A DNA stretch of 64,000 bases from Psammoneis japonica (GCA_008632985.1 QPGO01000095.1:245681-309680); one strand, 5' to 3'. Positions 29,868-54,430 are shown, numbered from the stretch's first letter. Made by a program: numbers and translations. Notes: generated by a model from the sequence alone, not told the origin.

Positions 29868-29897
29868 AGCTTCGGGCGCGCCTCCTCTCCTGAGCGT

Positions 29898-32800
29898 GTG
29901 GCCCTCTCTTCTTGCTTTTTCAACCAACCGTCCAATCCTGGAAGGGACATCCAGGCTCATTTGTCGGTCGGCCACTTTTTGCTCCTATGGTTCACTCTCC
30001 AGATTCTTGGAGAGGGAGGGACCGAAGCAGTTTCGTCACTTTTTCAGTTGCTGTTTGTTTTGGCAGGTGGATGTTTGTTCTGCTTGCTTCTCTTTTCCAA
30101 GAATCCTTTGCTTTCATGCGACGATCCACCCGACTTTGTTGTTGTTCCTTCTACCGAACCGACCTCATTTCGTCGTCCTCCTGATCGAACTCGGATGACA
30201 CATCATTCTCAGGTACGCCGCTTGGATCGGCGCCCAGTTCGAATCCCACATAGAGACCCCTTGTGGTCCTTCCTTCATCCAACGACTTGGCGTAAACAGC
30301 GCCGAACACCTGTCCCGGACAGTGCAGCGATTGCTGATCCGGATCGCTCCTGTCGAAAATCCAAGTCGTGGAAACTTTCAAGATCGAGACGTCGATCCAA
30401 ACCCAGGAAACCGAAGCCACCTAGATTTGCCCACGTTGATCCTCAACAAGAGGCCGCAGAAGCCTGCGCTCAAATCAAGCACCGCCCATTGCATCTACCT
30501 TCCGAGATGTACGAATTTCCTCATGGTGCGACTCCAACTGATTTCATTGCTTTGCTTGATCCTCTCGGTGACTGCCTGAGGACCAAACCTCGCAGCTCCG
30601 CAACACGAACGGAGCCCTCACCTTTTGCACCTCCAGACGACCCTGAAGCTTCCGAACTAGAAGAGTTCTTCCGCATCAAACACCAACTGCTACACCAAAC
30701 ATGGATCATGTGCGACATGCAGTGCGGTTGTTCGTTAGACGAATTCGTTCAAGGCATCGATCCTTCAGAACAATTCCATTTGATCAAGACACTTGCCTCT
30801 TCCAAAATGTTGCGAGCTTGTGGTCAAGCACCGACACTCTCTTGCGTCACAACCAACTTGTCATGCACGACAACAGCAACCTTTACGAGTGGCTTTGGTG
30901 GAGCAGCTGTGTTCTCTCACCAGACCATGACAGGTCCATCTCACGTTGTTGCATCCGAGCCGGATCCACCATGGCTAACTGAAGATCCAACGCAGTGTGT
31001 CAAGTCCTTCAATGATGCAAGAGATCTCGAAGGCCACCAATGTCAAGCATTGACATCGTGCTCACCCATCGACGCACCTGTTGTTCTCGACACAGGAGCA
31101 TCTTCGTCACTCACACCTCACTCAAGTGACTTTGCAGGACCGCTGGAACCCGTTGATGCCACTGCCATCAACGGATTGTCTTCAAGCACCCGAGCAGTTG
31201 GTCAAGGTTTCATGGAATGGGACGCAATTGATTGTTGGAATGTCATCCGGACCATTCGAACGTGAGCCTGCTGTGTTCCTGATGCTTCCATTCGACTCTT
31301 CAGCCCTCAAGCACATTTTCAAGAGAATGGAAACCAAGGTGAATGTCTCGTACGAGGAAACAAAGCAACCCTCACTCTTCCGAAAGGGGATGCGCTCGAG
31401 TTCCCATGTGACAAGGAAAACAACTTGCCTTTCATGATGATGTCCGAACCAATCTCAGCCGGAGTCACCCAATGCAATTTGGCTCCCATCAGTGCCGAAG
31501 CACGCCTCACTTCGTTTCTTTCTGTCACTTCTCAGACCAATCAGAATCTAACACCCGGCCAGAAGGAGCTTCTTTTGCTCCATCAGAAACTTGGCCATGC
31601 CGGCTTCCAGCACATTCAATGCTTGTGTGCAATGCCACGGGATCCCACTAAATCCCACATTGTCAAGCCTTCAACCCAAGCCGTCTCCAGTTGCACCGCA
31701 CCTTCATGTGCTGCCTGTCAACTCGCAAAGCAGAAACAATGAACACCTGACCGTTGCGGCACCTCCAATCATCCGCCGTTGACTTTGCGACAGGGAGATT
31801 TGGCTCCTGGTCAACGCGTCTCCGTTGATCAGTGCATCAGCCGTGTCCCTGGCCGTCTTCCGACGTCCAAGGGACGCGAACCCAAGAAAGACAAGTGTTG
31901 TGGAGGCACGATTTTTGTTGATCATGCTTCTGCCTGCGTCCATCTGACCCATCAAGTTGGTCTCACCGCAGGTGAAACTGTTCGTGCCAAGCAATCCTTC
32001 GAGCAGCTTAGTGACCAATTTGGGGTCCGCATCAAGTCCCACCTTGCTGACAACGTCCCGTTTGGCACCAAGGCTTTCATGGATGACCTGGAAGAAAACA
32101 ACCAGACTGTTGATTTCTCTGGTGTTGGCACTCATCATCAGAACGGCACAGCCGAGCGCTCCATCCAAACAATCACCTCATGGGCACAAGCCATGCTCCT
32201 GCACGCCATTCTCATGTGGCCTGATGCCGCCAACCTGGAGTTGTGGCCTTTTGCCATGACCCATGCGACCCACTTGTGGAACCACATCCCAAAGTCTGAC
32301 ACTCGCACCGTGCCAGTCGAGATCTTCTCCAAGCAACGCTTTGACACCTGTGCACATCTACAGTGCTTACAAGTGTGGGGTTGCCCCACACATGTTCTTG
32401 ATCCTAAGTTACAAGATGGCAAGAAACTGCCTGAGTGGGACCCCAGGAGTCACCGTGGCCAACATCTCGGCATCTCACCGGATCATTCAACTAACATCGG
32501 CCTCATTCTGAATCTCTCGACAGGCCATGTTAGCCCTCAGCATCACGTGGTCTACGACAACCACTTTGCAACGGCACCCAACAGCGACTCTGGCAGTTTC
32601 TTCCAGGATGTTCCCTTCACTGCCGACCTTTGGGAATCCCTCCTCACCGCCGACTCGCTGGTGCACCATGCTCCGCCTGAGCCTTCCGCCACCGCCAATG
32701 ACCCTCACTGTCGCTTGCCGGCTTTGCACGATGATTGGTTAACACCCGCAGAGCGCCACCATTGCGCTAATCATCGACATGACCGCCGTCAACGTCATCT

Positions 32801-35006
32801 CCAAAACTCCAAAACGGCCCCTCCCACCGTCCTTCCTTCAACCTCTTCCGTCACAGCTCCAGAGGGAGAGCTTCCTACATTGCCCGAATCATCCACTGAC
32901 AATCTAGAATCTGCAACTTCAGAGGCTCCAGAGGGAGTCGAGATCGATGAGTTCAGCGACAACAGCGACAACGAATTGTCGCTTGTTGATCATCACGACT
33001 TGCCTGAAGACCTCGACCTGGGTCCTGCTGAAGCTGAGCCACCTCAACCGGCTCCGAATGCCACCACAACACCTGCTCGGACTCAAAGCGGTTGTTCCGT
33101 CAAGAAGCCGGAACGCTTGATTGAAGCTGTGCATGCCGACATCCGCATTCCGCCCAACGAGTTGCCGAATGCCTGCAAAAATCCCAAACGTGCCATCAAG
33201 TCGGAAACACTGAACAAACAGTTCTTGATGGCCCTGCGTTGGGATGGCGTCATGAATGCACTCCGGTCCAAAGATTTGCATGCAATGCTTGACCTTTTCA
33301 ACAAAAACACCAATCAAGTTCACGGAACACTCGAAGAAATGCACCCTCTTGCCCTCGCAGCGAATGCAAATTCTGCTGATAATCCAACTTGGGAAGAAGC
33401 AATGAATGGCCCTGATCGAGCAGCTTGTCTGAAAGCTTGCGACGTCAAAATCGATTCTCCAGTCAAAGGCAAGGACGCCTGGGAAGAAGTAGACCGCCAA
33501 GATTGGATGAACGTCTTACCATCCACTTGGGCCTTCAAGTGCAAACGACACCCCGATGGGTCGATCCACAAACACAAAGCCCGCTTTTGCGTCCGTGGAG
33601 ACAAGCAATTGGAAGGCATCGACCACTTTGACACCTTTGCTCCAGTTGTCAATTGGACGACCGTGTGGCTTGTGCTCACACTTTCTCAAATTTTGGAACT
33701 TTCGACAAAACAAGTTGATCATGTCACCGCTTTCGTCCATGCTCCAATTGACAAGGATCCCAAATGGGATGCCATGACACCCGAAGAGCGAGAACGCTCT
33801 GGCATCTTCGCACAAATGCCTCGCAGATGCACCAAGCCCGGCAAAGCACTGAAACTCAAACGGACCGTGTGTGGTCTCAAGCAAGGACCTCGCAACTTTT
33901 TCCTGCACCTCAAGTCAAAACTCAAAGACGCTGGATTTCAATCGCAAGACGATGTCGATCCGTGTCTGTTTGCATCCGACAAAGTCATCTGCCTCGTGTG
34001 TGTTGATGATGCACTGTTCTTCTCTCCGAAACAAGATTGTGTCGACGAAGTGATCGAGAAACTCAAAATTGATGGCGGTCTGGCCATCGAAGTTGAAGAT
34101 TCCGTCGCAGGTTTTTTGGGGGTCCACATCGAACGCGACACCGACAATGGTGCTGTCAAGCTCACTCAGAGCGGTCCATCCAAACGTGTCGTCGAAGCCC
34201 TCAACATGGGCCATCCACCAAAGGCCCGAACGCCCACACTGGCCACTCCGTTGGCCAAGGACACCAATGGAGACCCACCAAATGGAGCCTGTAATTGTGC
34301 CAGTGTGGTTGGCATGCTCCAACATCTCCAAGGCCATTCTGGGCCAGACATTGCCTGCGCCGTTAGCTCAGCAGCCAGATTTGTTCATGGCCCTTGTCGC
34401 TCACATGAACTGGCCCTTGAATGGATGGGTCGACACCTGAAGGGCACTCTGGATGAAGGCCCAATCCTCAAGCCATCTGGGGACTTCAACATTGACGTGT
34501 TTGTTGACTCAGATTTTGCTGGACTGTGGCCGCACGAAGACAAGCATGACCCGGCTTGTGTCAAAAGCCGAACAGGATTTGTCGTTTGCATTTCCAACTG
34601 TCCTGTCATTTGGTCCAGTGAGCTTGCACCTGAGATTGCTCTCTCAACAATGGAAGCAGAGCACAGTGCTCTTTCCACTTGCATGAAAACTGTCCTTCCC
34701 TTTCCACGCACTGCACAAGCCATCTCTCAAGGCGCTGGAGTTGGTCCAGGAACTGCCAAGACCACACACACTGCTGTGTGGGAGGACAATGTTGGGGCTT
34801 TGACTCTGGCTGACATGGAACCTGGCCGAGTTACGCCCAGGTCCAAGCACTGCGCAATCAAGTGTCATTGGCTCCGTTCACAGCTCAAACCAAATCGAGT
34901 TGCTGTGTCCAAGATCGCAGCAGACTTGCAACGCGCTGATGTTCTGACCAAAGGTCTTATCACGGTTAAATTCAAGGCCACTCGAAAGTTGCTTTGCGGT
35001 TGGCAG
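29898..35006 (+). pseudogene. pol: Copia Pol (protease, integrase, RT, RNase H), inactivated
   Basis: VVLDTGAS protease; HQKLGH...CAAC; QNGTAER integrase; CLVCVDD RT; DSDFAG/QRADVLTK RNase H. In-frame TGA at 31263 and 31740. The expected terminal stop after LCGW reads CAG (35004-35006). Confidence 0.93.
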
Positions 35007-35026
35007 CTTCTTCGTTCGAGAGGGAG

Positions 35027-35251
35027 TGTCAACACAGCACGAACTCATGCGCCATGCGTGTGCGCTGCACTTGCACACGCGATTTCCCGCCATCGGTCTT
35101 TTTCAACTTTTCTCACAATTGCAACATCCAGTGTAACAAGACATCAGCAGCTTTGCCGATCATGCTGTCATCGTTGGCCCTCTTCGCTAGCGATGCATCT
35201 ACTGTTCGACTTCAGTCGACTTCTCCTAACTCTCAGACGAGAGTTATCGCA
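35027..35251 (+). repeat. 3' LTR of the Copia element
   Basis: Follows the PPT; ends tatcgCA, followed by TSD AAAGA. Confidence 0.97.
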
Positions 35252-35646
35252 AAAGACAGCCAAATAGAAAGCACTGCGACGTCAGCTATAACATAGAGTG
35301 TGCTAATTAAAACGCACTGCGCGCAATCCCTCTCCATCAGCATAGCATGTTGACCGCCAGCCTGGCGCACAAATGCGAGACTACCTACCGGCGGATGCGC
35401 GCCCGCGCGTGCGTTGATGCGGTCGTGCCAACGAAAAACATCCACAAAACGACAACGGGCAAGGTGGGTGTATTATTCAACGTGTCACTTTCAATTGCAT
35501 ATCGATAGCAAGAAGTGCTTGTTCATAGTACTAAACAACACTTCGATAGCTCGAATAGAAGTTGAGTCTCTGGTGGTTTCCACAAAAGCTGAAAGATTGA
35601 AAGAAATTGTAGCAAGCAGTTTTGATTCTTCTTTAGGTTTTCAAAA

Positions 35647-37071
35647 ATGTCACGAACAAGCAGTTCTCTGAATAGACGTCTCGAGTCTGAATTGTACGAG
35701 AGCATCCAAAACCATGATTGGGATTACGCCGAAGAATTATTAGTGGAAGCTTCGGAGCTCCCCGTCGTTCGACGAACCGGCGACAATACTCTTTTGCACT
35801 TTGCCACCGAACAAGAAGGAGTCCCACCCGACGTGATTCGAAATTTGTCGTCCGTCTTGAGCTGGCAACAGCAATATGCGACTAACAAGTGGGGTAAGAC
35901 GCCCCTTCACAATGCTATTTTATTCAAACAGAATTTCGAGGTGATTTCTGTTTTGCTGGAAATTCACTTGGTTGCAATCGACATGGCGGACTGTAGGGGG
36001 CTTAAAAGGGGGTGGACACCCGTGGATTACTTTTTTACGCGGTTGTTGGAACGTGAAGAAGAGGATGACGAACAGCCAGACGTGCTCACGGAAGATCTAG
36101 CTGCCATGCTGCGACTTTTGACAAGAGCTTGGATGGAATACTACAAAACAAGTGGCTTGGAAAGACTTTCGACTCCGCTTCATCGAGCAGTCCAATTTGC
36201 GTCTTCATACGAGGATTTGCCATTGTCGGTTTTGAAGATTCTGCTGGAAACATGCCCGTCCATGGTACAAGTACAAGACAGCAATGGTTGTACACCACTC
36301 CACTTGGCTTCCAGACGCGATGGTGCAAATGCAAATGAGCGACTGAAGCTCTTGCTGAACGTGACTCCCGCAGCCGTTTTGGAATCCCGGGATAAAAACG
36401 GCCGAACACCCCTTTCCAGCGCTCTCTTTTGGGTTGCCTCTCTGGAAATCTTCGAGACACTGGTTGCTGCAAATTCGGCCAGCATTTTCATTCCAGACAA
36501 GAGCAACAAGACACCGCTCGACCGTGTGAGTGGCCGGATTGCAAACGACGAGAGTGCTGTAGTATCCGACTATTACCTGAATGTTGCCAAGACGCTCGTC
36601 ATGGGCCGCCGCTGCAATTCCGACTCTGTTTTATTGCGCAAGTCCATTCTCCTTGAGAAATGTCCTGTCGAGTTGGTACGTGTGTTTCTCCGGGTTTTTC
36701 CACAACAAGCTCTGTGGAAGGACGAAAAGGGTAACCTTCCTCTCCACCTTGCAGCCACCGTGAAACCCAAACCACCTGAACTCGTTGCTTTTACGTCTCT
36801 GCTGAAAGAACTCATTCAAGCCTTTCCAGCAGGACCAAAGACAACCAATGACGCTGGTCTCTTGCCACTGGCATCCTTTATTTGTGCCGAGCGCAAGTGG
36901 AATGAAGGACTTGAGACAATCTTGCAAGCTCATCCAGCAGCCGTCATGGATCAACACTTGCCTCCATGTGCCGTGACGCAGCTACTGTCCAAATTGGGCA
37001 AACGCTCAGAAAATCCAACCGTTCTTTATCAATTGCTACAAGAGGCTCCGTCTCTTGTCAGTCGAGTGTAG
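35647..37071 (+). CDS. Ankyrin-repeat protein, copy B (intact, 474 aa)
   Basis: Uninterrupted ORF with GDNTLLHFA, GKTPLHNAI, GCTPLHLAS, GRTPLSSAL, GNLPLHLAA; normal Tyr/TpA content. Confidence 0.9.
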   Translation: MSRTSSSLNRRLESELYESIQNHDWDYAEELLVEASELPVVRRTGDNTLLHFATEQEGVPPDVIRNLSSVLSWQQQYATNKWGKTPLHNAILFKQNFEVISVLLEIHLVAIDMADCRGLKRGWTPVDYFFTRLLEREEEDDEQPDVLTEDLAAMLRLLTRAWMEYYKTSGLERLSTPLHRAVQFASSYEDLPLSVLKILLETCPSMVQVQDSNGCTPLHLASRRDGANANERLKLLLNVTPAAVLESRDKNGRTPLSSALFWVASLEIFETLVAANSASIFIPDKSNKTPLDRVSGRIANDESAVVSDYYLNVAKTLVMGRRCNSDSVLLRKSILLEKCPVELVRVFLRVFPQQALWKDEKGNLPLHLAATVKPKPPELVAFTSLLKELIQAFPAGPKTTNDAGLLPLASFICAERKWNEGLETILQAHPAAVMDQHLPPCAVTQLLSKLGKRSENPTVLYQLLQEAPSLVSRV

Positions 37072-37146
37072 AATAAGCATAATTTAGATTAGAATGAAGC
37101 TGGCTACAACAGTTTTCAACATGTTGTAGATTCCACATTTTTCTTT

Positions 37147-37338
37147 TTATTTCTAGACTTCATTCTTCATGGCAAAGCTTTGTATAAATTCTCTTGCACA
37201 CTTGAGAGCTTCAGTTTCATTGTTTCTCAACCTCCACCGTGGCATTGTCCAGTGGATGATTGGGATTGGGTGCACTCAGCAGGGCTTGAACAAACAGCAG
37301 CATGGTTCGCTGCAAAGCTGGACTCCACTTGTCCTTGA
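37147..37338 (-). pseudogene. Decayed 3' fragment of UBC13, copy B, truncated by a LINE
   Basis: Aligns to 54431-54625; homology ends at ccacttgtccttga (~37338). Confidence 0.8.
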
Positions 37339-37339: not shown

Positions 37340-40300
37340 TGAGCAGCACAGAGCGGGTGGTGCAGACACATGTTGGGGGGAGAAGAGGCAATCAAAGGGT
37401 GATGGAAAAGAAAGGATTCATGGGCAGAAAGATGGTTGGAGAGAGCCAGTTCAATGTTGAGGCTAAGGAGTTGAGCAGCCTAGATTGGCAGGTGGAGCAG
37501 AAGCAAGATGGTTGAGGGACAGTTGGTGTTTCCAGGCAGCATCATCATGGAGAAGCAGGTTGCTGAAGGCAAGGAGTGAGGGTTGGAAAGCAGAGCAGGA
37601 CACTTGGGAGTCAGAAAAATTAGCAGGAGAAGTCCAAGGTGGTTTGGGTGGAAGGGGTGGGAGGGAAGCAGAAGCAGTGTGGGAGTGGCCACAAAGGAAA
37701 GCATGGAGGCAGCACCCAATGCCACACAGGTGGTCAAGGGTGAGTGGAGGGAGGAAAACACCAGCTTGGTTGATGGAGGAGTCAACAGAAGAGCCACATG
37801 AGGAGGGAGTGTCATGACCAAGGAGCTTGTCTTGAATGCTGCTGAGGCAAGCCTTGGACAAGAGGTTGGCAGAGGGGCAGGCAAACCAGGTGCATGCTGC
37901 TGAGGGGGGGCTGGGGGCTCAGGTGCTGCAATGTTGACAGTGACAAAGTTGTGCACAGACACCAGGGAGGGGCAGAGCCAGTGGCAAGATGGGCACCAAC
38001 ATCAGCGGGCTGCTTCAATGGGAAATCAGGGAGGAGGCCAACGGGCTTGAGGAAGATGTGCTGTGCAGAGCAGCAGAGGCCTGACAGGGCATCAAGGGTT
38101 TGACAATGGCACAAATGGTGTCACACATGTGATTGGAAAGAGGACCTTTGTGCATCTTGGAGCAGGCAAGGGCATGACTGCCACAGGGGTCAAGGGTGCA
38201 GCAACCACATGTGGGCGGGGCAGTTGGCAAAGATTGGGAGGGACAACAGGGAGGCAGAGGTTTTGGAGAAGGAGGAGGAGAGGAGGTGGAGGAGGAGGAG
38301 TGCACTGTGCTTGAAGAACAAGCACAAAGGAAAGTGGAACAAATCACAAAAAGTGGAAATCATGAGATTGCATTTTACACTGTGATTTTGGGATTCTCTG
38401 AAGGAGTTCTCAATGGCCTGAAGCTGTTGCACTGCTCCCACAGAGCAAAGGCCTTTTGGAGAATCTAATCATGACAACAGATTGTCTGGATGCAATCAGC
38501 ATTGACATCTCATGTGTCAACATTGTCTGTTGATTGCATTTGCAACCTCAGACTTCCGATCAATTCTGTGTGATCAACCTGAAAATTGCACACATCCAAG
38601 CACAATTTCATCTGCTTGACAATGTGTGCTGCATCCACCTCCCTGTTTTCTGGGTTGTCTGATGCACTGAAAGCCTTTGGCACAACACAGCAATCTGTTG
38701 AGAGTTGACTGACATGCAAAGTCATTTGTCAAATGGAGTTGTTTGATGGACGGACATTGACAGTGTCAATGACATTGCCACGTTTGATCTGTGCTGTGCC
38801 ACTGGCATGCACAGTTGTTGTGATGCAAGGCCCAACACAGGGCTGTTCTAATTTTTGAAAATCTTTCTCCCAGAGAGCAGGATCTTCTCTCCCACTCTGC
38901 ATGTGTGTGGAGTGCATTGTGCATTCTCTCTGGCATCATTTTCATTTGTTGCATCTTGTTTGAATTTCTGGACAAACTTTCAGTCAGCAATGTGTTGGAT
39001 GCTGAAGATCATTTCTCTGCCAAAGACCAATTGTCCTGGCACAGCTTGCACAGCAGCATGACAAGTCAAACGTGCAGTGCTGCAAAGGCTGTTGCTGATG
39101 GCATTCCCTCAAACAGATTCTGAGCATCCAGAGGTGCATGTTGCAAATCAAATGTGCACAGCATGTTGCCCAGCACTTGATGCACCCGCTCAGTTGTGGC
39201 ATTTGATGACAGATTTCATGCAGTTGTGGGGGCTTGCATTTAATGCCACAATTGTCTTGGACCATTGTTCCAAATTGATGTCCAATGAGCTCACTTCCAT
39301 GATCACAAGTGATCAACAATGGCCAAGGACATCTGCTTGATCATGTTCTTTCCAGCCATCCACCAGTGACGGTTGTGGATTCCTCATTTGGAATTTCCAT
39401 TGCTTCAAACCATCCTGTTGCTGGACCTGCCATTGTTGGACATGGGGGTTTCTTTTTGCTCTTCTGATGCATTTTGCATGCTCCAATGAGATCCACACAC
39501 AGTCTTTCCTGTGGCACCGCTTTGCACAATTGGGAGGTAAATGTCCACACTTCTTCTTTTGTTTCTTCTTGAACTTTTGGCATGTCTCACATTTTGACAC
39601 GCATTTTTGTGTGTCATCATGCAAGGTGGGCCACCACAAGTGTTGTGAGGCTGTTTCTTCAGCTCTGTTTGTGCCAGGGTGCAACAAGTGCGTGTGATGC
39701 CAATTGGTCACAGACTTTTGCAATGTCTTTGTTGCAACAATTTTGTCCTTGTGACATGTGAGCAACCGGTCTTGCTCACCTCCACAAAAAGTCTTTGCAT
39801 GACATGTTGCATCTGACAATTTAGAGAGAATGTCTTTGTCCCATTTTTGTTCAGTGTCAAGAACTTTGTGTGTCAACAGAAAGACATTGTTGCAAGATTT
39901 GGGTGCAACCTCATCAGCCAGTTCATCGTTGCTGAGGTTTTCAAATGGCTCAATTTTCTTCATGGCAAGTCAGCTGATTGTGTCTGCAATGACATGTTTG
40001 CCTTGCCCTTGAGGCACGTCATTTTGGAATGATGTTCTTCTGTCACAAGTGACCAATGCATGACTCTGTTGGTTGTGAAGTTCTTGTGGGCAAGATTCTT
40101 GTGATCCGTGCATTTGTCAATCTGTTGGCCAAACAGCACATTCTAGAATTCCTCAAGTGTTTCCGCCATGGACAGAAGTTCTTTTTCCATTGCAGTGCAG
40201 CATGTCTGTGCTCCATTTAACTTGCACTGTGAAAAGCAACAGGTCTGCTGTTCTGCATCATGACCACTCCCAGTTGAGAATTGCTCATGCCGGCATGTGT

Positions 40301-43300
40301 CTCAAAGGGAACATTGAAAGTTGGGTGCAATGGTGACATGTCTTTCAACACAATCTGCTTCACATTTTTGAAGTCTTTTTGTTCCATGCCTGTCCATTGC
40401 CACTTGGCCTCAGATAAGGTGAGTTTGGCCAAAGGAGCAAGTGCATGAGATTGTTGAGGCCACATGTCTCGACAACAGTTGATCGTGCCAATGAAGCATT
40501 GCAATTCCTTGTTGCAAGTTGTTGGCATTGCAATTGCTTGAATGGCCTCCATTTTCTTGGGTGTTGGTCTGATGGTGCCAGTTCACGCAATGTGAAAGCC
40601 TGCTCAGTCTGCTTCTGGCTGTCTTGGCAAAAAATGACTTTTTGGCATTGACCTTCAACCCAGCTTGTTTGAGCCATGCAAATGTTGTCTTTTGAGCTTT
40701 CTGAGATGGTCTTTGAAGTCACTTTTTGTTGGGCACAGTGTGTCATCAACACAAGTTCTGACAAACTCTAAACCTGCCACAAGCTCACCAGTGTGTTCCT
40801 GAAAAATGTCAGGAGCTCCACAGATTCCTGTGGAAAGTCTGCAGCACTTGCATCACCCCACAGCATCACAATCATGCACAAACTGTGTGCATGTGGTGTC
40901 AATTCAATGTGGTGGTGTCCCATGTTCAAATCCAATGAGGTTGCACACATGAAGCCCTCCAGCTTCTGTGGCACATCCTGAATTTTTGGCAAAGGATGCA
41001 GAGCACGTGTCAACCATGACATTCAGTCTGATGAAGACCTTCTTGCCGATCTCGAGAAATTTGGTGCACTTCAGAATGCCCTGCTTGTTGTGGCACTGAA
41101 TGTTGATCATGCAGGTGCAGCTCTTCTCATCTCCAGGGACGAAAACACTGCTCCATCTTCATGTGCTGGCTTGGTTGCTTTGAGAGTCTTTGGCTCAGAA
41201 ATCGACTCCAGCAGTTGAGGTGCAATCTTGTCCTGTTTGACGATGGACTTGCTGTTGGTTGCATGAGATGAAAGCTTCATCTTCATGTTTTTGCCCTCTG
41301 TGGTGCGTGTGCACAATGCACTGTGCTCAAAGAATGAGCACAAACAAAAGCAGAACAAATCACAAAATGTGGAAATTTTGAGATTAGATTTTACACTGCA
41401 ATTTTGGGACTCTCCAAAGGAGTTCTCAATGGCTCAAAGCTGTTGTTCTGCTCCTGCAGAGCAAAGGCTTTTCAGAGAATCTAATTGTGACAACAGATTG
41501 TCTGGATGGGATCAACATTGACATCTCATGTGTCAACATTGTCTGTCAATCGCATTTGCAATTTTAGACTTCCAATCAATTCTTTGTGATCAACCTGACT
41601 GTTGCACGCATCCACGATTGTTGTGTGATTGACATGTGCAAGATGATGACATGTGGTTGTGAACATGCACAATTTTGTCTGCTTGACAATGCATGCTGCA
41701 GGAGGAGGAGGGCGAAGTGAGCAGAAGACAGGTGGTCAGATGGGCTCAAGTGGGAGAGGGAGTGCAGGCAAAGACTTGCAAGGGGGGCAGAGAAGGGAGG
41801 GGAAGGGAGGACATGACAAAAGTCCAGTTGACTCAAGAGGAACAAGAGAGTCTCATGTTGGTGGCAGTGTGGGAGGCAGGTGGGCTGGGAGAGGCCATGG
41901 AGGTCATGGTCACATGCAGCAGAGGAGAGAGAGCTGCAGGCAGCAGAAAAGTCCAGGGAGAAAAGGGTGGGGGCAAAACAACATGAGATGGTGCAGAGAC
42001 ACAGGTGGAGCATGGGCCAAACCACAAGGAGAGAGCAGCAGAGTGGCTGGATGGGATGCAAAAGCGTGCTGGTCTCCGACAAGAGAATTGCCATGTTTTG
42101 CAAAGTGGAGGGAGCATGCATGAGAGGAAAGGAAGGAAGGGACAGCAGAAGCAGGTGTGTCACAGCAACCTGTGCCACCAAGAGAAGGGAGATGGGGAGG
42201 GAGGTGATGAAGAGGGTGGCAGTCAGGAGCAGGAGAGGGGTGGCTGCAAGACAGGAGAGGAAACAGGGAGAATGGCCAATGATGGCATTGGCAAATGGAG
42301 ATGCCCATTGGAGGAAGAGATCTGGGGATTCAGAAGGGTTGGAGGGGTGGAAGTTGCAACGTGCATTGGCTGCAAGTGGGTGGGTGACAGAAGGGATGGC
42401 ACAGTGGTGGAAGAGAGTGCTTTTGGGTTTTGCTTGTCTTTGAGACAAGTGGCAAGTCATGGTGGAGGGCTTTGGCAAATGGCGGGGCCTTGGATTGGAG
42501 GAAGTTGGAGGCAAAGAGGATGAGGACTCAATGGGTTGTGCCCAAGGAAACAAATGCTGGTGGCAACCTCAGGCTGCATGGAAGGGTTGTTGTCAGGGTT
42601 GATGAAGTTGAAGGTGTTGGAGAGAGTGGTGGCATCAGAGGTGGTTAAAGAGGGGGGAGAGCCAGAGGCAGATGTCAGCATTTTGGTTTTGGCTTGGTTG
42701 AGAATGACGCCAATGGGGGGGGGGGGGGGCAGTGAAGACAGCTGGTCTGGGAACCAAGAGATTGCAGAGCATGGGAGAAAAGCATGGGTGCCATTTGGGC
42801 AAGAAGAGGTGGCCAACTTGGAGTGAAAAGGGAGGTGCTGATGGAGCTCTTGCTTGAGGAGCATGCAGATGTGGGCAAGGACAAGGCTGGAAAAGGCAGG
42901 GCCAAATGGGCAACCTTGGACAAAGCCTGTTGAAAAAAGGAGGGCCATTGGAGGCAGTGGTCCAGGCATCAGCATTGATTGGGATGTTGACAAATGAGGT
43001 TGAAGAAAGGTGGCAAGGGTTGACAAGGGGAGGAAGCAGACAGAGCATGGTGGCAGGCATCACATGATGATGCCTCATTGAAAAAGTTGCCAAGGTCCAG
43101 GATCACCGCCATTGCTTTGAGAGGAGTGGCATCAGGGGAGAGGCAGCCTTTGATGTTTGCACAAACACAGTGGATCAGAAAATCCATGCCACCATGGACA
43201 TCAATGCCAAACTGGCCTGAGGTGAGAAAATCTCAGCAACAAAGATGGAGGCAAAGAGGAACATGATGAGTGTGCCAGCAATGCAATGGATGGAGGTGCC

Positions 43301-43700
43301 AACCCCAACAGGTCAGAGCTTGGAAGGGTCAGACTGGTTTTTGTGAAGGGCAAGGAAGCAGCTGGTCGCAAAGTGAGGCTGGACAGAAGGAGGAAAATTT
43401 TCAAAAAAGGATGAGATCAAGGGGGCATTTGAAAGGGACAAGACATGGGGTGGAGGTGGCCACAGGGGTGGAGTGGCAACAAAGAGCACCAAAAGACTTG
43501 AGTGGGTCAGTTGAGTCAGCAAAAGGGAGGAAGAGTTGGGGTCATGGTCAGTGGAGATGGTCTCATGTGCCAAAGAGCTCAATTTGTCAGTGTGAGAGTG
43601 CACACAGCATTGCACCCAAGAGGCAAAAGTGATGATGGCATGGCATTTGAGTTGCTCATTGTGGAAATCTTGTGTGCAAAATGCCTTGTCGACAGCACTT
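37340..43700 (-). mobile_element. Heavily decayed non-LTR retrotransposon (RT plus C-terminal Cys/His region; CRE/Ambal-like), split by a Gypsy insertion
   Basis: RT remnants AVILDLGNFFNE, TGFVQGCPFGPAF, IGVILNQAKTKML (42.5-43.2 kb); CGC..LDPCGSHALAC (~38.15 kb). Confidence 0.65.
38301..41700 (-). mobile_element. Decayed, internally deleted Ty3/Gypsy LTR retrotransposon
   Basis: Direct repeats 38301-38633 and 41317-41700 (tgcactgtgc...tgctgca), flanked by GGAG on both sides. PPT at 38634-38645. RT (ATSLDLNMGHHHIEL), RNase H (RPVAFHS) and integrase (HTHLLHPG...CETCQ) in Gypsy order. Confidence 0.85.
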
Positions 43701-43709
43701 GTGATGTGC

Positions 43710-44600
43710 GCATTGGCTCCTCACCGCACTTTTGCGCAACCATGACTGTGGGCAATGAGCTTGCGCTGCAGGCCCCAACTCTCCATCATGACTCCAACAG
43801 CCTCTTGAACAAAGAGTTTTTCTGTCATTGCAAGGTTCTTGTTTGCAACAAGTGTTGAGACAACATGAGCTGTGCAAACCCTGCACATTTTCTTTCAGGA
43901 TTCTGCCAAACTCTCATTAGATTCTGACCTCATTGGGCTTGCATCTTTTGTATTTTTTTTCTTTTTCAAAACATGCCACCCTTTTGTTGCTGATGGGCAG
44001 TGATCTTGATCACCCTGGGTGAGATTGCTTGCATGGGTTGGCCAATTGGTTGTTTTTCCCTTTCCAAAATTTGGATCTGACACCCGGCTTGGCAAAGTGG
44101 GCCCCGGTCTTTGGGCAGATGCAATTGGTGAATCCTTTTGCCACATGTTGCTGGAATGAACACCTGTTGCAGCTGGATTTCTCTTGTGGTGTCAATGCCA
44201 TTCCTGGCCTTGTTTTGGGCCAATGGGAGGTGGGCTTCATCTGCAATTGGGTGTTTGAGGTGCATCTGTCAATGAGTCTTGGTCATGAAACAAGGAGTGG
44301 CCCATGGAGGCACAAACTGCACTGTTTTTGCAACAGTCTTGTGCACCACATGGGCAGTTGCTGCATTGACTGCAATTGCTCTGGCCGTTCAAAAACTGGA
44401 GCGTGTTCTGGGACAGTGCAAACCAGCCCAACAGGAGCACAGCAGCTTGCTTTGGCACTTCTCCTTGGCGGCCGCAACCTCCAGTGCCCTGCAGAAAGGT
44501 TGGATCAAAGCCCTTGTTTGTTTTTGTTCCCAAGCAAGCACGCGCTCAACCTCTGGCAAATGGCAAGAAGTGCTCTCATGAAGAAAGTGTTCCACAGTGC
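43710..44600 (+). pseudogene. Hypermutated copy C of the small membrane-protein gene and its flanks
   Basis: Aligns to ~18680-19550 (GVAHGGTNCTVFATVLCTTWAVAAL vs GIAYGGTDYIVFAIVLCAIWAVAAL). Confidence 0.85.
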
Positions 44601-45553
44601 AGTGGCCACCAGAGCAGAGACATTTTCAAAGAGTTCCAAATCTTTGAATTTTGCACTGGCGGCGCACAAGCAACTGACTGTTTGCCACACTTTTTGCAGC
44701 ACAAGTGACAAAACCTGGCATTGCGCAGGTGCATTGGTTCCTCCTTCATGGCAGGAACTCTGGACACAAAGTGAGGAGGTGAGGAACCCGGGATGATTTG
44801 GGCTGACATGCACACAAATGTTTTTTTAAAAATTTGCACCTTTGGGCAATGAGTTTGCAGTCAATTGAGGCAGTGTTTCATGTTCACATTCAATTGTGAA
44901 GTTCCAAAATCAAGACACAACATTGCTTTTCACAAAACCACAAAAATGGCACTGTCCACTGCCAAGAATTTGCCCATTTGTGCAATGCATCTGTCACAAG
45001 AAAGAAGGCAAAAGTGCTGAGACAGATCAATGAGACTGCACTCCACATGATGGCATGGTTGTGTTTTTGATTTTGTCCATTTGTTGTGTCTTGTCAACGG
45101 ACTTTTGACTCCTGATGTCATTGATGCCTCTTTGTCTCTTCCTCTGATTGTGATGCAGGATTCTTTGCAACACTCAACTCTGTCAACTTGATGCTGAATA
45201 AAAACAATTGTGTGTGCCTTCATGACCCATTGGTGTGTGTTGTGCAATGCATTCAATGCAATTTAGAAGTCATTGTGGACCACGCTTTTTGGGTCACGTG
45301 AGAACTTCAAATCTTGTTGCCAACAAAAGAATGATGCTGCACTCAGTTTTGAGGGTGTGCGGCAATTAAGAAGCTTGGATGCAAGTGCAACAACAGTTCC
45401 ATCATTGTTTAGTGGAACAATGGCATCAGCATTGCAGCCATTTTGCTTTGTTCCAAGGCCCAAGATGCGGGCAAAATGTGCCCTGTTGGGCAGATTGGTG
45501 AAGACGCTGCAGCAGGAAGGTGCCATGGCACCAAGATTGCACACCATTGCCTG

Positions 45554-46207
45554 ACACAAGACAAGGCCTTTGCTTCCCAACCATTGTCATTGTTGTGACC
45601 TCTTCAACCCAATGGAGTCATCCAAGGCCATCCCAAGGCAACTGAGCACTTGCACTGTCACACTGATGGTTTTCTTGTTTCAGCAGGTGGGGTGGCTGGG
45701 CCAAACCCAGTCATGTCAGAGAGACAAAGGGCTGCATCAACACAAGACAAGGCTTTTGCTTCCCAACCATTGTTGTTGTCGTTGTTGTGTCCTCTGGGAC
45801 CCAATGGAGTCATCCAAGGCCATCCCAAGACAACTGAGCACTTGCACTGTCACACAGATGGGTCTTGTCACTGCAGGTGGGGTGGCTGGACCAAACCCAG
45901 TCATGTCAGAGGGACAAAGGGTTGTGTCAACACAAGACAAGGCCTTTGCTTCCCAACCATTGTTGTTGTTGCATCTCTGGGACCCAATGGAGTCATCCAA
46001 CGCCACCTCAAGACAACAGAGCACTTGCACTGTCGCACAGATGGCTCCCTTGTCTCTGCTGGTTGGCTGGCTGGGGGCCAAGGCCAGCAACATCGGAGAG
46101 ACAAGCTGCTGCATTGACACAAGACAAGACCTTTGCTTCCCAACCATTGTCATTGTTGCATCCTCTGGGACCCAATGGAGTCATCCAAGGCCATCCCAAG
46201 ACAACTG
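45554..46207. repeat. Tandem repeat, ~187-bp unit, ~3.5 copies
   Basis: acacaagacaag...tttgcttcccaaccattg...ccaatggagtcatccaa recurs at 45554, 45740, 45930 and 46117 (periods 186/190/187). Confidence 0.92.
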
Positions 46208-46525
46208 TTCATCCTTGCATTCTAGCAGCTTGTAAAGATCATCACTTCGACACTGGCCAGCCAGCTGCAGCTTGACATGAATCATTTGAGGAAGCAGCTA
46301 TCGTCCAGGTAGCGCAGCACGGCAGATGTACACGTCGACCCCGAAACGTGTGTGGTGTTTGCCTCCGGCAGTCGACTCACATGCAACCCAGTGGATAGGG
46401 TCCCCTTGGCGCAACGCTACTTTCTCTGTTAGGTCGAGACATGCCTCTAAAACTTAGATGAACTAATGCGAACGTTATCGTAAGCTCTGATAGGTATAAT
46501 TGATACTCAATGACAATCCCACCCA

Positions 46526-48019: not shown

Positions 48020-49150
48020 ATGACTGAGGATAGTATTGACGTCGCACATGAAGGCAATTCTTTTTTCTCACGTAGAAACAACCGTGACTTCTACGTAGGA
48101 TACCACCAAGATTTGGCGCCTCATTTCTCTTTCAAAGATCGACCATGGCGCCACCTTTTGAAGCCCCCCAAAACGCAGGAAGATGCAAAGAAGGCAAAGC
48201 TTTCTTTTATGACTGACTTCTTCTCAAAAAACAAATGTCATGGCCATCCAAAGAAGAAGAAAGCGAAGTTTGCAAAGGATGCTGCCAGCAGTGCTGCCAG
48301 AACATCATCGACGAGGCACTTTCTTCGTGCGGTCTGCCAAGAAGACTGCTGCAGCTGAGAATGACAAAGACAAAAAGCGCAAGGCATCAATGGATGGTGG
48401 CAAGAGTGATGGGTCCATTGCAGTGAAGAAACCAAGGACGAATTGGTCCAAGGAGCCTCAGCTGCAAATTGTCAACCATGACGGACGCAGTGAACGAGTG
48501 GCTTGGTTGAGAAGGAATGGCATCATGACAGCAATGGAGAAGCTCATTCAATGCAAGCATTGGCTGGTTTGGTTAAAAGTGTTTGGTGTTGTCAAAAATG
48601 TTTTTATCCTTCATTTGTTGCAGTGCGCCTGCGTGACTTGCCCGCTCTGAGAAGATTTTTGGACAAAACAGAAATCCACAACTCTCAATGACACACAATG
48701 GGACCAACCTGGCAGGATGCATTGTGCAATTGCTCCCAACATTGAAAAAGAAATGGGGAAATTGGTGCAAGCACCATTGAGACATCACGCCGTAAAGTGG
48801 GACATCAGCCGCACGCACTGTGTTGCACTGCTGCAGTTTGTTGCGTGCACGCAACTTGGAAACACATGATGCACAACAGATGATGCAAGTTATGAACTTG
48901 TTCATTTTTGGCATAAACACCATGCTGCAAAGAGAACTGGTGTCCGTTCATCAGCATTTGTGCCACATTCAAGAGGCAAGAAAAGCACTGTTCTCAATGG
49001 AAGTTCAAGGAAGGGCAAAAGTGCACCGAACATGATGCAGCAACTCACAAAACTTTAATGGAGCTTGCAGCTTGTGAGGGGCCAATGCAAAGTGTGCCTC
49101 AATTTGCACTGTGCCTTAAATTGCATTGGACTCCAGTGAAAAATTCAGTG
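48020..49150 (+). pseudogene. Decayed N-terminus of a probable DNA-transposon protein (AT-hook remnant)
   Basis: MTEDS...FFSKNKCHGHPKKKK (consistent with KRRGRPKKKK after CpG decay) and KKPRTNWSKEP; progressively loses TA/CG downstream. Confidence 0.4.
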
Positions 49151-49269
49151 GACTTTTTTTAGGATGAAGCCACAGACCCCATGACCCAAGCATGTGTCGG
49201 TGGAAAGGTGGCACAGAGCTCTTCAAGACACATTTAGAGTCTCATGTTGAATGGAGACAACTGGGGAAG

Positions 49270-52200
49270 CTTCATGCATTCCTCCTGACCAGGTGAGGCA
49301 TGGACAGACTTTGTGGAGATTTTGCTGTGATCACACGTGTGTGACGCACTGCAGACTTCTGTCTTTCTCAATCTGCTTCACCTCGCCTCGCAAAAACAGC
49401 GCTTGTCATGCTCAAGGCATTTTCCCTTGCACCAGCAACAAGATCACAGCAATCAACAAATGAAAACACTGTGCTGTCCAGCTGTTTGTTGTTGAGTCAA
49501 GTGTTGTTGATCCAGAGTTGTTTGTTGCTCACAATGTCAGCTGCTGCAGACCTGACAGAAATTGAAGACAACTGGGTGGAAGAAAACAACAACTCCTTGC
49601 TGCTGTCTAAATGGCAGATGAGTCTTCATGCAGAGACCATCACAGGAGCCAAAAGACTGGTGTTGTGATGTCAGCACTGCTGTCATTGAGCCAAACCACA
49701 TCATGCACTGTGCACGCAACTGAGAGCACACACAATTGTGTGCGACAAACTCAAATCTCATTCAAATCCTGTCACTCCCCAGTTTGCTTGAGGAGTCCAC
49801 AGCAATGGATTCAAGGTCAGATTGGTTGAAAGCCTTGGGATCAAAGTTCCAAAACATTAGAGGACAAAGGATGTTCCAGACCTGGGAGCAGCCCCAGTGC
49901 TTGCTGAGAATGTCAGCTGGGTTGCAGGAACCTTGGGAAACTGGAGGCAATCACCTCGCACACATGGTGGAACAAGAGGGCAGTGTGTCGCTTGTGTAAC
50001 TTGGAGTGTGGGATGGCAGCACTGTCCACAACCAACTTGTTGTCCCCAAACATGTGACATGTTTCACGAATGGGGATGCCAAGGCAACGCAAAGTGATGT
50101 GCAGACCATCAATGAGTGCATCTGTGAGGCGTCCATCAGCAACAAGTTGTGCCTTGTGCCACCCGTCATGTTTGACGTTGCAGACTAGATGCACCCTGAT
50201 CTTCTTGTGTGGAGTCCTTGCAGTGTCCACAGTCATAGAAAACCTTGTGCTCACCCCAGCTGAGTCATCTCAAGGTCTGTTGCATCCCCAACTTGTGGTT
50301 GCCATTGCACTTGTCAAGGGCCAAGGTGTGCCTGCAATCTTGTGGCACTTCATGCCTGTGCTTGTGTTGTGGTGCAGTGCAAAATGAGCACAGCTTGGCT
50401 TGGTTGGTCATGTGGAATGGCTTCTTCTGGTGCAGAGCCACAGTTTGGAAGAGTTTCCAGCTTTTGGTTTCAAGCAGGCTGTGTTTGCCTGTGCAGATGA
50501 CACAGGTGATGGGATTGTCCTTGGCAATGATGGCAAGGGGCTCCAATGCAATCTCCCCATTCTCCCATTCAAGCATGACATTGTGGCTTGGGCTGGATGG
50601 TCCTTTGTGCAAAATGATGTCGGAACTTCCAAAGAGTGGAGTCCTTGTCTTCTTGCTTGATGTGGTGCATGATGTCATTGCAGGCAAGGATTTTTTCACA
50701 TTCATCATTGTCAACAGAGCAAACAAATTTGACCAGTTCCAGGTTGTTGCCAATTTTCCAGTCATGGTCTTCAACCTTCAATGGCCTTGAAGATGCGGGC
50801 TCTGCAACATTGTCTGTCCTCAACCTCAGAGTCAAAGGCCTTGAAGATGTGGGCTCTGTGACGTTGTCAGTCCTCAACCTTGGGGTCAAAGACTGGCATT
50901 TTGAGCATCCTGATTGCCTCCCCATCTGGTGGATCTGGTGAATCCTTGAAGTTGTGTGGGGGTTTGATGACGGGTTTGGCAGATTTCTTGTCAGGATGAG
51001 GGTCAAGATGCAGGTTGGAAGTGGACGGATCATGGGCACATTCAGCATTGGTGTGCGGGCATGTGGCAATGTGTAGAAGGCCACCTTTGATGTCGGCAGG
51101 GATGACACATCCATTGATGGTGGTGATGCACTGCAGACCATTGGGAACCTTGATCAACCGATCATTGATGCAGTGTTTGTGCCATGCAAGTTGGCCACAC
51201 GAGTGCATGGTGATGCCACCATTTGCACTGTGATCCATGAGAGCACCCTTGCAAGTCGAGTTGTGTGTCAAGGTGGAGCAGACAACATTGTGACTGTTGG
51301 CATGATGACAAGTGTGGCCATTGATCTCAATGTTGGCAGCAGCAGCATGGGAGGATGTAGATCTGGGGGGTTCTCACCAGAGTGGGCCGATGGTGGCCTT
51401 TTGGGCTTTCAGGTGCAAGGAGGCATTGCAAGTCACCAGGTGGCAAAGGCTTGCACCTGGTGAGGTGTGCCAGGATGGGGTTGGCATTGGCTGCATCTGC
51501 TGTGGCATCGGGTGGTTTTGGGGCTGATGCAAGATTGTGAGCATTGGCAGACAAGTTGACACCTGGCAGTTGCCGGCACAGACAGTGTGCAAGCCAAGGA
51601 TGATGGCCTTGGTAGACTGAGGCAAGGCATCCTAGATGTGTTGGTGATCCAGCAAGATGCAGCACCATTGTTCCCTGGTGAGGGAGGTGCCACGAGTCTG
51701 TGCAGCGCAGGCTTGGATGATGTCAACATCACTGTCGATGTTGAACAACACATCATCTTCAGGGTTGTTGGGGGCCAGGTCATGTTTGCAGATGGCACAG
51801 CACGGAGTGCATGAGGCTGTCTTGGGGTGAACGTGCTGTTGCACTGTGCTGCCATAGAGAGGAGGAGCCCACAGCACTGTTTGAGTGAAACGCCCATGCC
51901 ATTCTGTGTGCAGAACTGATTGGCTTGGTTCTTTGCTGAACGGAGTTTTTCAACAGGGTGAATGGCATTCTCAAGCATGATGTGTTTCTGGCCAGCAAGA
52001 AGCTGTCCGCATTTGGGATGAGAGCTTCACACTTGCAAAGTCAGTCCTGCCAGTGAAGCATGAAGGCATGAGCAGAGCCTTTCCAGGTGCCATCACCAAG
52101 GCCAAGGCGAGCGGTGGTGAGGTGCGTGAGAAGGGTTGAGGACTCCAGAGATGCGCAAGCATGTGCAAGGGTGCACTTGGACAGTTCACAACACACTGCT

Positions 52201-52950
52201 TGAGCATCAGAGGAGCCAACATGTTCACAAACAAGTGCCTTGCCTTTGTCACTTTGCAAGATGCACTCAAATGTGGCGAACATGTGCTTCTGTTGTTTGG
52301 TGAGCAGGGCCTTGTCCTCAGCTGCAGAGGGCTTGCATGTTGGATCAAGAATGCGGTCGATGTTCTGGGAGCGGGCCTGTGCGACAACAGAGGTGCGCCA
52401 TGTGTGCCAATGTTTGTTGGGCTTGAGAGTTGCAAAGGCAAGTGGGTCACGTTTGCTGCCTCATTTAAAGTCATGCACGGGGTCACATGGTTTTGGGGGC
52501 AATGAGCCAGGTGCAGGAGCAGATGGCACTGTGCCCGCTGTGGAAAGGGACGCTGCACACTCAGGGCTAAGACGACAGTCAGCAAACCCCTCATGCACAA
52601 ACAAGGCAGGGTTGTTGCTGACATTGGCATCTCTGTGCACTTTTGCCATGCATGGGCCAATCAACGCAGCCATCTGTGCTTTGCAGCTGCGTGGCAAGGG
52701 CATTTGATTGGTGCCATCATTGCAAACCAGGGCATCGAGTTGCGTCAGAGTAAAAGTGAAGAGATCCTGGCAGGAGTCAGTGCCATCAATGCTGAAGGTG
52801 AAGAAAAGTGGACTGTCTGTGACTTGATTGGGAACAGGCAGTGCCTAAAATGTGCTCAAAGCCATTGTTTTGTTGCTGCTTAAAATGACTTGAAACTGGA
52901 CTTGAAGTCTTGAACTGTCTGCAAATCAGAAGCCACTGGGCTGTGATGTC
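49270..52950 (-). mobile_element. Second, older and internally deleted Copia (different CoDi lineage); ends approximate
   Basis: RNase H NPADILSKHWGCSQVW and MFGDNKLVVDS...KLHKRH; RT start KKIRVHLVCNVKHDG; EWENGEIALEPL; gag ILQSDKGKALV...DAQ; PPT GGGGAG at ~49775-49780. Confidence 0.82.
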
Positions 52951-54343: not shown

Positions 54344-54430
54344 AATACGCATAGTTTAGAGTAGAATCATCATCATCAAGCTGGCTACAACAGTTTTCAA
54401 TGTATATGTAGATTCCACATTTTTCTTTTT

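Follow-up and report, generated by a model that had tools for sequence, protein, structure and literature searches.

The closest described counterpart of the decay reported here comes from the chlorarachniophyte Bigelowiella natans (Rhizaria), whereas our material is a 64,000-nucleotide stretch of the genome of a diatom (Stramenopiles), Psammoneis japonica (GCA_008632985.1, QPGO01000095.1:245681–309680, one strand; hereafter the window, with positions counted from its first letter), in which a young Copia retrotransposon with long terminal repeats (LTRs) and four further islands are strongly depleted in TpA dinucleotides. In mutation-accumulation lines of B. natans, two viral inserts, namely an integrated giant virus and a virophage, gained 231 new mutations, of which 230 were A>G or T>C, all at TpA, at a rate of ∼6 × 10−7 per site per generation, which is ∼1000 times the background and was seen in some lines only (Mettrop et al., bioRxiv 2026, doi 10.64898/2026.01.13.699255). 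According to the main text of that preprint, TpA-poor and CpA+TpG-rich clusters of the same genome are enriched in reverse-transcriptase and transposase genes, and its authors propose an ADAT2-like adenine deaminase, citing ADAT2 that edits DNA in amphioxus and a trypanosome ADAT2 that deaminates C in DNA. The likeness lies in changes that are almost exclusively A>G/T>C, restriction to TpA, sharply bounded domains of foreign DNA, and loss of TpA with gain of CpA+TpG; three features of this type (i.e. the class of transition, TpA only and bounded domains of mobile DNA) are present in the window.

The two systems differ in their targets, which are viral inserts in B. natans and LTR retrotransposons, a satellite and duplicated segments here, and in degree, with an observed/expected ratio (O/E) of TA of 0.45 in the region of the nucleocytoplasmic large DNA virus (NCLDV) of B. 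natans compared to near-complete depletion (0.0–0.1) here. Moreover, a mutation rate was measured there, whereas here the process is read from sequence scars. The main text of the preprint does not contain the words ‘context’, ‘flanking’ or ‘trinucleotide’, and a TAY > TAR hierarchy (Y, pyrimidine; R, purine) is not stated in it. A process of this kind has been described once before (in 2026, in B. natans); new here are the lineage, the retrotransposon targets, the near-complete depletion and the flank hierarchy. Our literature search for TpA hypermutation in diatoms, whose coverage left out most subscription journals, found no report. Fungal repeat-induced point mutation (RIP) also shows similarity, in that dinucleotide-specific transitions kill repeats and mobile DNA in place, on both strands, with leakage into the flanks and a scar that can be expressed as an index. 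However, RIP makes TpA from CpA, while TpA is destroyed here (TA O/E 0.0–0.1, CA/TG O/E 1.8–2.1); RIP also needs duplication, a premeiotic stage and an enzyme of the RID/DNMT4 type. The NCLDV target in B. natans is reported to be single-copy (doi 10.64898/2026.01.13.699255). As for diatoms, DNMT4 is reported in 31 of 60 species (PMC9998398).

Dinucleotide profiles in 500-bp bins divide the window into two compositional states. Host DNA has a TA O/E of ∼0.55, with a range of ∼0.4–0.8, and a CG O/E of ∼1, whereas five islands have a TA O/E of 0.00–0.24 with CA/TG O/E raised to 1.2–2.1. Island edges are sharp, with TA O/E falling from ∼0.5 to <0.1 inside one 500-bp bin. The islands lie at 21451–24950, ∼28000–35250 (the TpA-poor domain of the Copia element, + strand, TA O/E 0.03–0.24), 37340–45999, 48201–53800 and 58951–64000, the last continuing past the window end. 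CpG is also lost in four of them (CG O/E 0.0–0.4), while the Copia island keeps a CG O/E of 0.5–1.3. Their content includes parts of Copia reverse transcriptase and integrase, remnants of Gypsy RNase H and integrase, repeats and a satellite.

The third island contains only 25 TpA, and 64 CpG, in 8660 bp, and each of its 500-bp bins has a TA O/E of 0.00–0.10, a CG O/E of 0.00–0.28 and a CA/TG O/E of ∼1.8–2.1. A first-pass annotation of 37340–45550 had judged by eye that the rare surviving TpA sites are mostly YTAR, with ATA, TAT and GTAC nearly absent. Both parts of this claim hold on counting: the 25 survivors comprise 19 YTAR, five mixed and one RTAY site, and they include two ATA, one TAT and no GTAC. 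The YTAR excess has a binomial p of 8.7 × 10−11 against host DNA (183/1109, 16.5%) and of 3.1 × 10−9 against a transposon baseline (20.2% of 19,731 TpA) taken from 75 intact metagenomic (environmental) Copia loci. All five of the example sites were located (CCTAGA at 37481, TCTAAT at 38466, TCTAGA at 40144, TCTAAA at 40769 and TTTAGA at 45264). The observation of TpA loss with YTAR survivors is confirmed and highly significant.

We then compared the five islands together (29,810 bp, 144 TpA, with the Copia island taken as 28001–35000) with 28,551 bp of host DNA (1109 TpA). YTAR accounts for 76 of the 144 island sites compared to 183 of the 1109 in host DNA, where it is the rarest class, and RTAY for seven compared to 301; the ten NTAN classes differ strongly between islands and host (χ2 = 140, 9 degrees of freedom (df), p = 9 × 10−26). 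Per-bp survival relative to host DNA spans a ∼100-fold range, from TTAA (0.62), CTAA/TTAG (0.46), CTAG (0.20) and GTAA/TTAC (0.16), through CTAC/GTAG (0.10), ATAA/TTAT (0.08) and GTAC (0.06), down to ATAG/CTAT (0.04), ATAT (0.014) and ATAC/GTAT (0.006).

These survival values are described by a model in which hits on the two strands are independent and the base 3′ of A determines the hazard, such that the survival of N1-T-A-N4 equals s(N4) × s(complement of N1); for this purpose the islands were redrawn to take in the whole TpA-poor Copia domain (153 TpA). With four parameters for 16 tetramers the model fits (deviance 11.5, 12 df, p = 0.49). Uniform loss regardless of flanking bases, which the first-pass annotation had named as the outcome contrary to its claim, is rejected (likelihood-ratio p = 6.5 × 10−31), and loss is strongly non-uniform. 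The modelled per-strand survival is 0.82 for TAA, 0.50 for TAG, 0.23 for TAC and 0.09 for TAT; adding 71 polarised outcomes gives hazards of 2.33 for TAT, 1.48 for TAC, 0.68 for TAG and 0.27 for TAA. The base 5′ of T on the hit strand brings no gain when added to the model (likelihood-ratio p = 0.31). In every one of the +1 classes the +2 base has a significant effect (p = 0.011 to 2 × 10−7), with T sensitizing and A protecting: survival is 0.39 for TAAA and 0.13 for TAAT, 0.15 for TACA and 0.03 for TACT, and 0.35 for TAGA and 0.08 for TAGT. Because of this dependence on the 3′ bases, RTAY sites vanish, and what survives are the YTAR sites, which read TAR on both strands, TYTARA foremost among them; this typical survivor makes up 17 of the 153 island TpA compared to 17 of the 1109 in host DNA. 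Two other candidate determinants were set aside: Z-DNA-like purine–pyrimidine alternation, as it is T, not a purine, that sensitizes at +2; and protection of TACG by an adjacent methyl-CpG, for which the enrichment (15 of 59 surviving TAC compared to 109 of 614 in host DNA) is weak and unconvincing.

Polarised comparisons give the direction of change and the strand that was hit. Segment X (18719–19555) is host-like, retains TpA and CpG and serves as a reference for two decayed paralogues, X′ (21908–22802, within the first island) and X″ (43738–44612, + strand, 74% identity, within the third). In the alignment of X (18719–19503) with X″ (43738–44552), X has 25 TpA, 23 of which align gap-free; X″ has CA at 13 of these and TG at 10, and retains none. 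Summed over both X paralogue pairs, A>G changes affect 19 of 27 TAC, 16 of 31 TAT, 5 of 14 TAG and 4 of 27 TAA. Sites of the form YTAY became TG 13 times and CA four times, whereas RTAR sites became TG twice and CA 14 times (Fisher p = 3.6 × 10−4). This indicates, with no need of a baseline, that the strand reading TAY is the strand hit. Three copies of an ankyrin-gene segment (19705–21601 on the + strand, 35470–37338 and 53173–54654) allow three-way polarisation. They show seven, four and zero private TpA losses, none of them at YTAR, and 10 of the 11 sites have a TAY strand. The seven belong to copy 3, and six of them lie at 53218–53836, where the fourth island reaches ∼600 bp into this copy; copies 1 and 2 keep those TpA.

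The first-pass annotation had also named TAC as the favoured target, which stands in part. TAC beats TAT at all five ATAC/GTAT sites, but TAT is at least as depleted overall, and in each survivorship comparison the sites with TAT are rarer than those with TAC. The safe statement is that TAY is hit much more than TAR, a 3′ pyrimidine being favoured ∼four-fold over a purine, with an order of T and C that differs by method.

The young Copia element (27672–35251, + strand) shows how strict and how fast the process has been. It is bounded by LTRs at 27672–27896 and 35027–35251 and by the target-site duplication AAAGA, and its reading frame (28335–35267, 2311 codons) has four stops and no frameshift in 6.9 kb. 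The 225-bp alignment of its LTRs contains 18 differences, namely 13 at TpA, four at CpG and one transversion. Twelve of the 13 TpA losses are in the 3′ LTR, which has lost 12 of its 17 ancestral TpA. Read as A>G, the 13 changes fall in TAC seven times, TAA three times, TAT twice and TAG once, exactly as first counted. The element keeps a CpG O/E of 0.5–1.3 at a TA O/E of 0.03–0.24, and with CpG intact, no frameshift and one LTR difference outside TpA and CpG, TpA loss has been fast relative to other decay.

The same loss is written into the protein. Tyrosine (Tyr) makes up 0.1% of the 2311 codons, compared to 1.9–3.8% in 118 of 120 homologues and 0.77% and 1.62% in the other two. At 20 columns with conserved Tyr in a comparison with 25 homologues, the Copia element has Cys 11 times, His seven times, Phe once and Tyr once, and its catalytic YVDD reads CVDD. 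Among former Tyr codons, with the third base taken as retained, 9 of 12 TAT became TGT and 2 of 6 TAC became TGC. The 18 Tyr>Cys/His outcomes form nine runs compared to 9.6 expected, and thus give no sign of the strand-coordinated runs that a processive single-strand enzyme would leave. Among other Tyr-poor relatives, P0187 (0.77% Tyr) was rejected as a further case, as it has Phe, not Cys or His, at 13 of 23 conserved Tyr columns; its pattern is TAY>TTY (an A>T transversion), a different bias in another element. P0175 was also rejected, being near normal.

In this element the requirement for a 5′ T is strict. Tyr>Cys/His changes (18/20) stand against none of 68 for Asn>Ser (0/15), Asp>Gly (0/35) and His>Arg (0/18) together; other codon changes that would reflect A>G are equally rare (Glu>Gly 0/26, Gln>Arg 0/18 and Lys>Arg 2/32), and a T precedes five of the six Ile>Val changes. 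Trinucleotide frequencies relative to host DNA are 0.65–1.17 for AAN compared to 0.03–0.31 for TAN (0.03 for TAT, 0.21 for TAC), and each of the 13 LTR transitions outside CpG falls at TpA. Old copies show apparent A>G at NAY outside TpA. After three-way polarisation, a 5′ T is now present at 14 of the 33, which marks them as two-step changes, and the remaining ones are no commoner than in the host-like lineage, except AAC>AGC (6/21).

These counts bear on polymerase eta-type error-prone repair, in which G would be misinserted opposite T at WA motifs (W, A or T) while methylated or heterochromatic DNA is repaired. An A:T>G:C change with a 5′ T preference does resemble the WA hotspot of somatic hypermutation, and the AAC>AGC excess in old copies is of the expected kind. 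However, the AA>AG rate, which the first-pass annotation had proposed as a discriminator, is flat in the young Copia element (Asn>Ser and Lys>Arg above) although TpA is nearly saturated, and the LTR transitions outside CpG are confined to TpA. Misinsertion should also follow the 5′ primer context rather than the +1 and +2 bases, and TAA, a classic hotspot, is the coldest context here. The strict 5′ T in Copia disfavours a WA process of this type, and we regard it as improbable.

Several lines of evidence indicate where the process acts. Both strands are hit about equally, with ratios of 13:10 (TA>CA against TA>TG in X″), 12:8 and 11:7 (Tyr>Cys against Tyr>His), and a satellite and duplicated host-like DNA are affected besides transposons. 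Contigs of the public DNA run X1 include further copies of the Copia element that have CA where the window copy has TG, at no fewer than five adjacent pairs among the 40 differences listed, and overall 472 of 561 differences are transitions. Given the divergence of the LTRs, the affected edge of the ankyrin copy, the satellite and the copy-specific CA/TG, the process acts on chromosomal DNA in place and on each copy independently, and not on RNA or on cDNA before insertion.

The alternative that transposon RNA is edited from A to I by an ADAR- or ADAT-like enzyme and fixed by reverse transcription, such that elements insert already mutated, meets the same evidence. The TpA-poor Copia domain does roughly coincide with the expected transcript, with most of the 5′ LTR out and most of the 3′ LTR in, and hyper-editing by ADAR is alike in producing A>G, in preferring U 5′ of the edited base and in targeting repeats. 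ADAR, however, works at the RNA level and would affect one strand once the RNA is reverse-transcribed, whereas both DNA strands are hit here, with a strict 5′ T and a favoured 3′ pyrimidine; ADAR tolerates a 5′ A and prefers a 3′ G, which is not favoured here. Editing of RNA would also give one direction of change, compared to the near-equal ratios above, and the LTRs of one insertion differ at 13 TpA though they were copied from one template. The satellite, the duplicated host-like segments and the flank of the ankyrin copy are affected as well. Strand symmetry and LTR divergence largely refute this alternative, which we consider barely credible.

The TpA-poor domain of the Copia island is offset from the element. 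The 5′ LTR (16 TpA) and the next ∼100 bp keep dense TpA, and the single TpA loss of this LTR is close to its 3′ end. Such an offset would be expected of a domain that coincides with the transcript, which begins in the 5′ LTR and ends in the 3′ LTR, or with a unit of chromatin from which the promoter is exempt; it is seen in one element. The mutational domain of activation-induced deaminase (AID) likewise begins slightly downstream of the promoter, and the Copia domain, setting in ∼100 bp beyond the 5′ LTR, may be compared with it. APOBEC3 and AID, cytosine deaminases that hypermutate retroelements and immunoglobulin genes, further resemble the present case as deaminase-driven, hotspot-dependent hypermutation directed against mobile or foreign nucleic acid. 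They differ in that they act on C, not A, and give G:C>A:T, and in that APOBEC3 works on minus-strand cDNA with changes on one strand.

One X1 contig skips the whole Copia element, joining 27657 to 35251 with six other letters between, at a depth of 29 compared to ∼57–70 in neighbouring single-copy contigs, i.e. about half. Perhaps only one haplotype carries the insertion, or the contig may represent a paralogous empty site. If the element is hemizygous, it is young, and its near-complete TpA loss would represent a burst.

The scar is also found outside this genome. In one of 77 metagenomic Copia loci (L036), a 3085-bp sequence with 57% G+C has no TpA, a CpG O/E of 0.92 and an intact frame. 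Its protein has 46% identity to that of the window element, and its YVDD likewise reads CVDD. At 13 conserved Tyr columns it has Cys six times, His three times, Phe twice, Asp once, Val once and Tyr never, and changes in other contexts are rare (Asn>Ser 1/8, Asp>Gly 0/24 and His>Arg 0/10). Thus the process is not confined to the genome of P. japonica.

The same locus argues against the notion that no mutation took place, whether through miscalls at modified TpA or through transposons that intrinsically avoid TA. Systematic miscalls at modified motifs are known in some long-read assemblies. However, X1 contigs match the island without a difference over pieces of 346–933 bp (X1 being possibly the assembly's own data), and the signature recurs in L036, an unrelated metagenome contig. 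An element that merely avoids TA should keep its function; with its catalytic Tyr gone and 19 of the 20 conserved Tyr replaced (18 times by Cys or His, once by Phe), the window element cannot be of that kind, and 75 of the 77 metagenomic loci, all related elements, have a TA O/E of 0.43–0.80. We regard an artefact or an intrinsic bias as extremely unlikely.

A directed, in-place, TpA-specific and context-biased process therefore very probably exists. The explanation that we favour is as follows: (i) TpA is converted to TpG or CpA by A:T>G:C transitions in transposon and repeat DNA, with other sites left almost untouched; (ii) either strand can be hit, a 5′ T being obligatory, with a chance that is set by the bases 3′ of A (T ≥ C > G > A at +1, with T sensitizing and A protecting at +2); (iii) the adenine would be deaminated enzymatically to hypoxanthine in DNA, which would be read as G at the next replication; and (iv) the enzyme would act after recruitment to silenced mobile DNA, and its purpose would be analogous to that of fungal RIP. 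In kind, the process would match what is seen in the B. natans lines, where integrated viruses are hypermutated at TpA only. We put the probability of this statement as a whole, chemistry included, at roughly 0.55; adenine deamination as such is close to an even call. The sequence comparisons show the direction of change, its restriction to TpA, the dependence on flanking bases, the independence of the strands, action in place and a pace faster than CpG decay; the deaminase, its recruitment to silenced mobile DNA and its defensive role are what we infer.

The first-pass annotation had listed a deaminase of the TadA/ADAT type among its candidates, and such an enzyme is plausible, although the data fit it in some respects only. 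TadA, ADAT2–ADAT3 and the DNA adenine base editors derived from them share a U or T 5′ of the target, and UAC is a natural target (U33-A34-C35 of tRNA-Arg); the strict 5′ T and the hot TAC agree with this. The hierarchy is not simply tRNA-like, however, since TAT is at least as hot as TAC, TAG and TAA are cold and both chromosomal strands are hit. To our knowledge, natural eukaryotic tRNAs with A34 have G, A or C at position 35, never U. An enzyme of the deaminase fold would be expected to carry an HxE...PCxxC motif; a Pfam scan of 20 long open reading frames (ORFs) of the window found no deaminase domain.

The strongest competitor to adenine deamination places the lesion on the opposite base: thymine at R-T-A in silenced DNA would be modified (e.g. 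by oxidation of the TET/JBP type to 5-hydroxymethyl- or 5-formyluracil), and the modified T would pair with G, giving T>C. As TAY is RTA on the other strand, every survival and polarised count fits this scheme equally well. Furthermore, 5-formyluracil pairs with G, and dinoflagellate 5-hydroxymethyluracil occurs preferentially at TpA and TpC. On the other hand, a literature search on 5-hydroxymethyluracil in diatoms gave papers of which those listed, judged by title and the opening of the abstract, all concern dinoflagellates; and an A between two pyrimidines is a poorly stacked base, which would favour the flipping of A rather than T, although this is an argument from structure only. We consider thymine modification unlikely, though less so than the other alternatives.

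Several points weigh against the explanation by adenine deamination or limit its reach. An A>G change on one strand is a T>C change on the other, so that a sequence comparison does not settle the chemistry. The commonest anticodon contexts of natural ADAT2/3 substrates are U-A-G and U-A-A, which mismatches the hierarchy seen here. The ranking of TAC and TAT differs by method (5:0 for TAC head to head, yet lower survival for TAT), survivorship depends on an ancestral NTAN spectrum taken by proxy from host DNA and 75 foreign Copia loci, and the AAC>AGC changes in old decayed copies (6/21) are a residual signal outside TpA. The explanation also does not account for the sparing of the 5′ LTR. As to generality, the evidence base is the sequence of one 64-kb window and one metagenome contig; another metagenomic locus (L051, TA O/E 0.21) was rejected as a further case, as it keeps 7 of 12 Tyr and only 5 of its 22 TpA are YTAR. 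Finally, a mutation-accumulation study of the diatom Phaeodactylum reported a GC>AT bias and, in the part available, no such process (PMC6604790).

That diatom retrotransposons bear the same scar as B. natans, and in far more complete form, suggests that major marine algae have a genome defence that is widespread and has been overlooked. We tentatively suggest, while holding it rather doubtful, that diatoms and chlorarachniophytes share a natural enzyme that acts on chromosomal DNA, deaminating adenine in either of its strands, with T-A-Y(T) specificity and recruitment to silent mobile or viral DNA. If true, RIP and APOBEC defence would have a counterpart that acts on adenine and is of ancient date in the SAR supergroup (Stramenopiles, Alveolata and Rhizaria), and A-to-G DNA editing would have a natural, ready-made scaffold; any DNA adenine deaminase behind the scar would be of interest to base-editing work. 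The flank hierarchy (i.e. an obligatory 5′ T, the +1 order, the +2 effect and independent strands) is a quantitative fingerprint that candidate enzymes must reproduce in vitro, and it already argues against repair of the polymerase eta type and against RNA editing. For genome scans, YTAR enrichment could be used as a statistic similar to the RIP index, and hypermutated elements can be recognized simply by ‘proteins’ that lack Tyr and abound in Cys and His.

The third island also holds the following features. Gypsy pol remnants lie at 39565–40396 (− strand), with RNase H at ∼40044–40396 and an integrase zinc-binding domain at 39565–39729; the Pfam matches are PF17917 (1.7 × 10−7), PF17919 (4.3 × 10−5) and PF17921 (3 × 10−11), obtained by six-frame read-through with X at stops, with coordinates converted by hand from residue numbers. 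A 298-bp direct repeat (38301–38598 and 41317–41614, both + strand, 85% identity) may be an LTR pair or a nested fragment. Its 298 columns contain 10 adjacent TG↔CA double differences, which imply independent decay of both copies from an ancestral TA or CG. Across the old repeat pairs such double differences number 10, 4 and 5, and ancestral TA and CG are not separable from them. The satellite (45552–46227, + strand, period ∼190 bp) lies at the island edge and is mostly TpA-free, with a TA O/E of 0.00 at 45501–46000. The segment 41001–44000 is strongly purine-rich on the + strand (GC skew +0.35, AT skew +0.11 to +0.15) and has no recognizable domain.

The left third of the window carries long intron-free ORFs for two trypsin-like proteases, a fructose-1,6-bisphosphatase and an ankyrin protein. 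The nearest named relatives of the fructose-1,6-bisphosphatase are from diatoms (Odontella, Nitzschia, Chaetoceros, Coscinodiscus and others), which marks the window as nuclear DNA of a diatom; the top match overall, an unnamed one, has 82% identity. The three ankyrin segment copies are spaced 16–17 kb apart, are 81–86% identical and each adjoin a TpA-depleted island. Together with X and its two decayed copies, they suggest a larger duplicated unit or host segments captured by mobile DNA.

Without TAA and TAG, the islands contain long spurious open frames on several strands and in several frames (e.g. 330, 257 and 348 codons, with no Pfam match). Gene callers would over-predict in all islands and at 28335–35267, and such calls can be flagged cheaply by products without Tyr and rich in Cys and His. 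An open frame at 23647–27471 (− strand, 1274 codons) encodes a 3′–5′ exonuclease domain (PF01612, residues 516–690) in normal DNA, and its final ∼430 codons lie in TpA-depleted DNA (TA O/E 0.0–0.23, CpG retained). Either the 3′ part of a host gene has been reached by hypermutation, or missing TAA and TAG have merely lengthened the frame.

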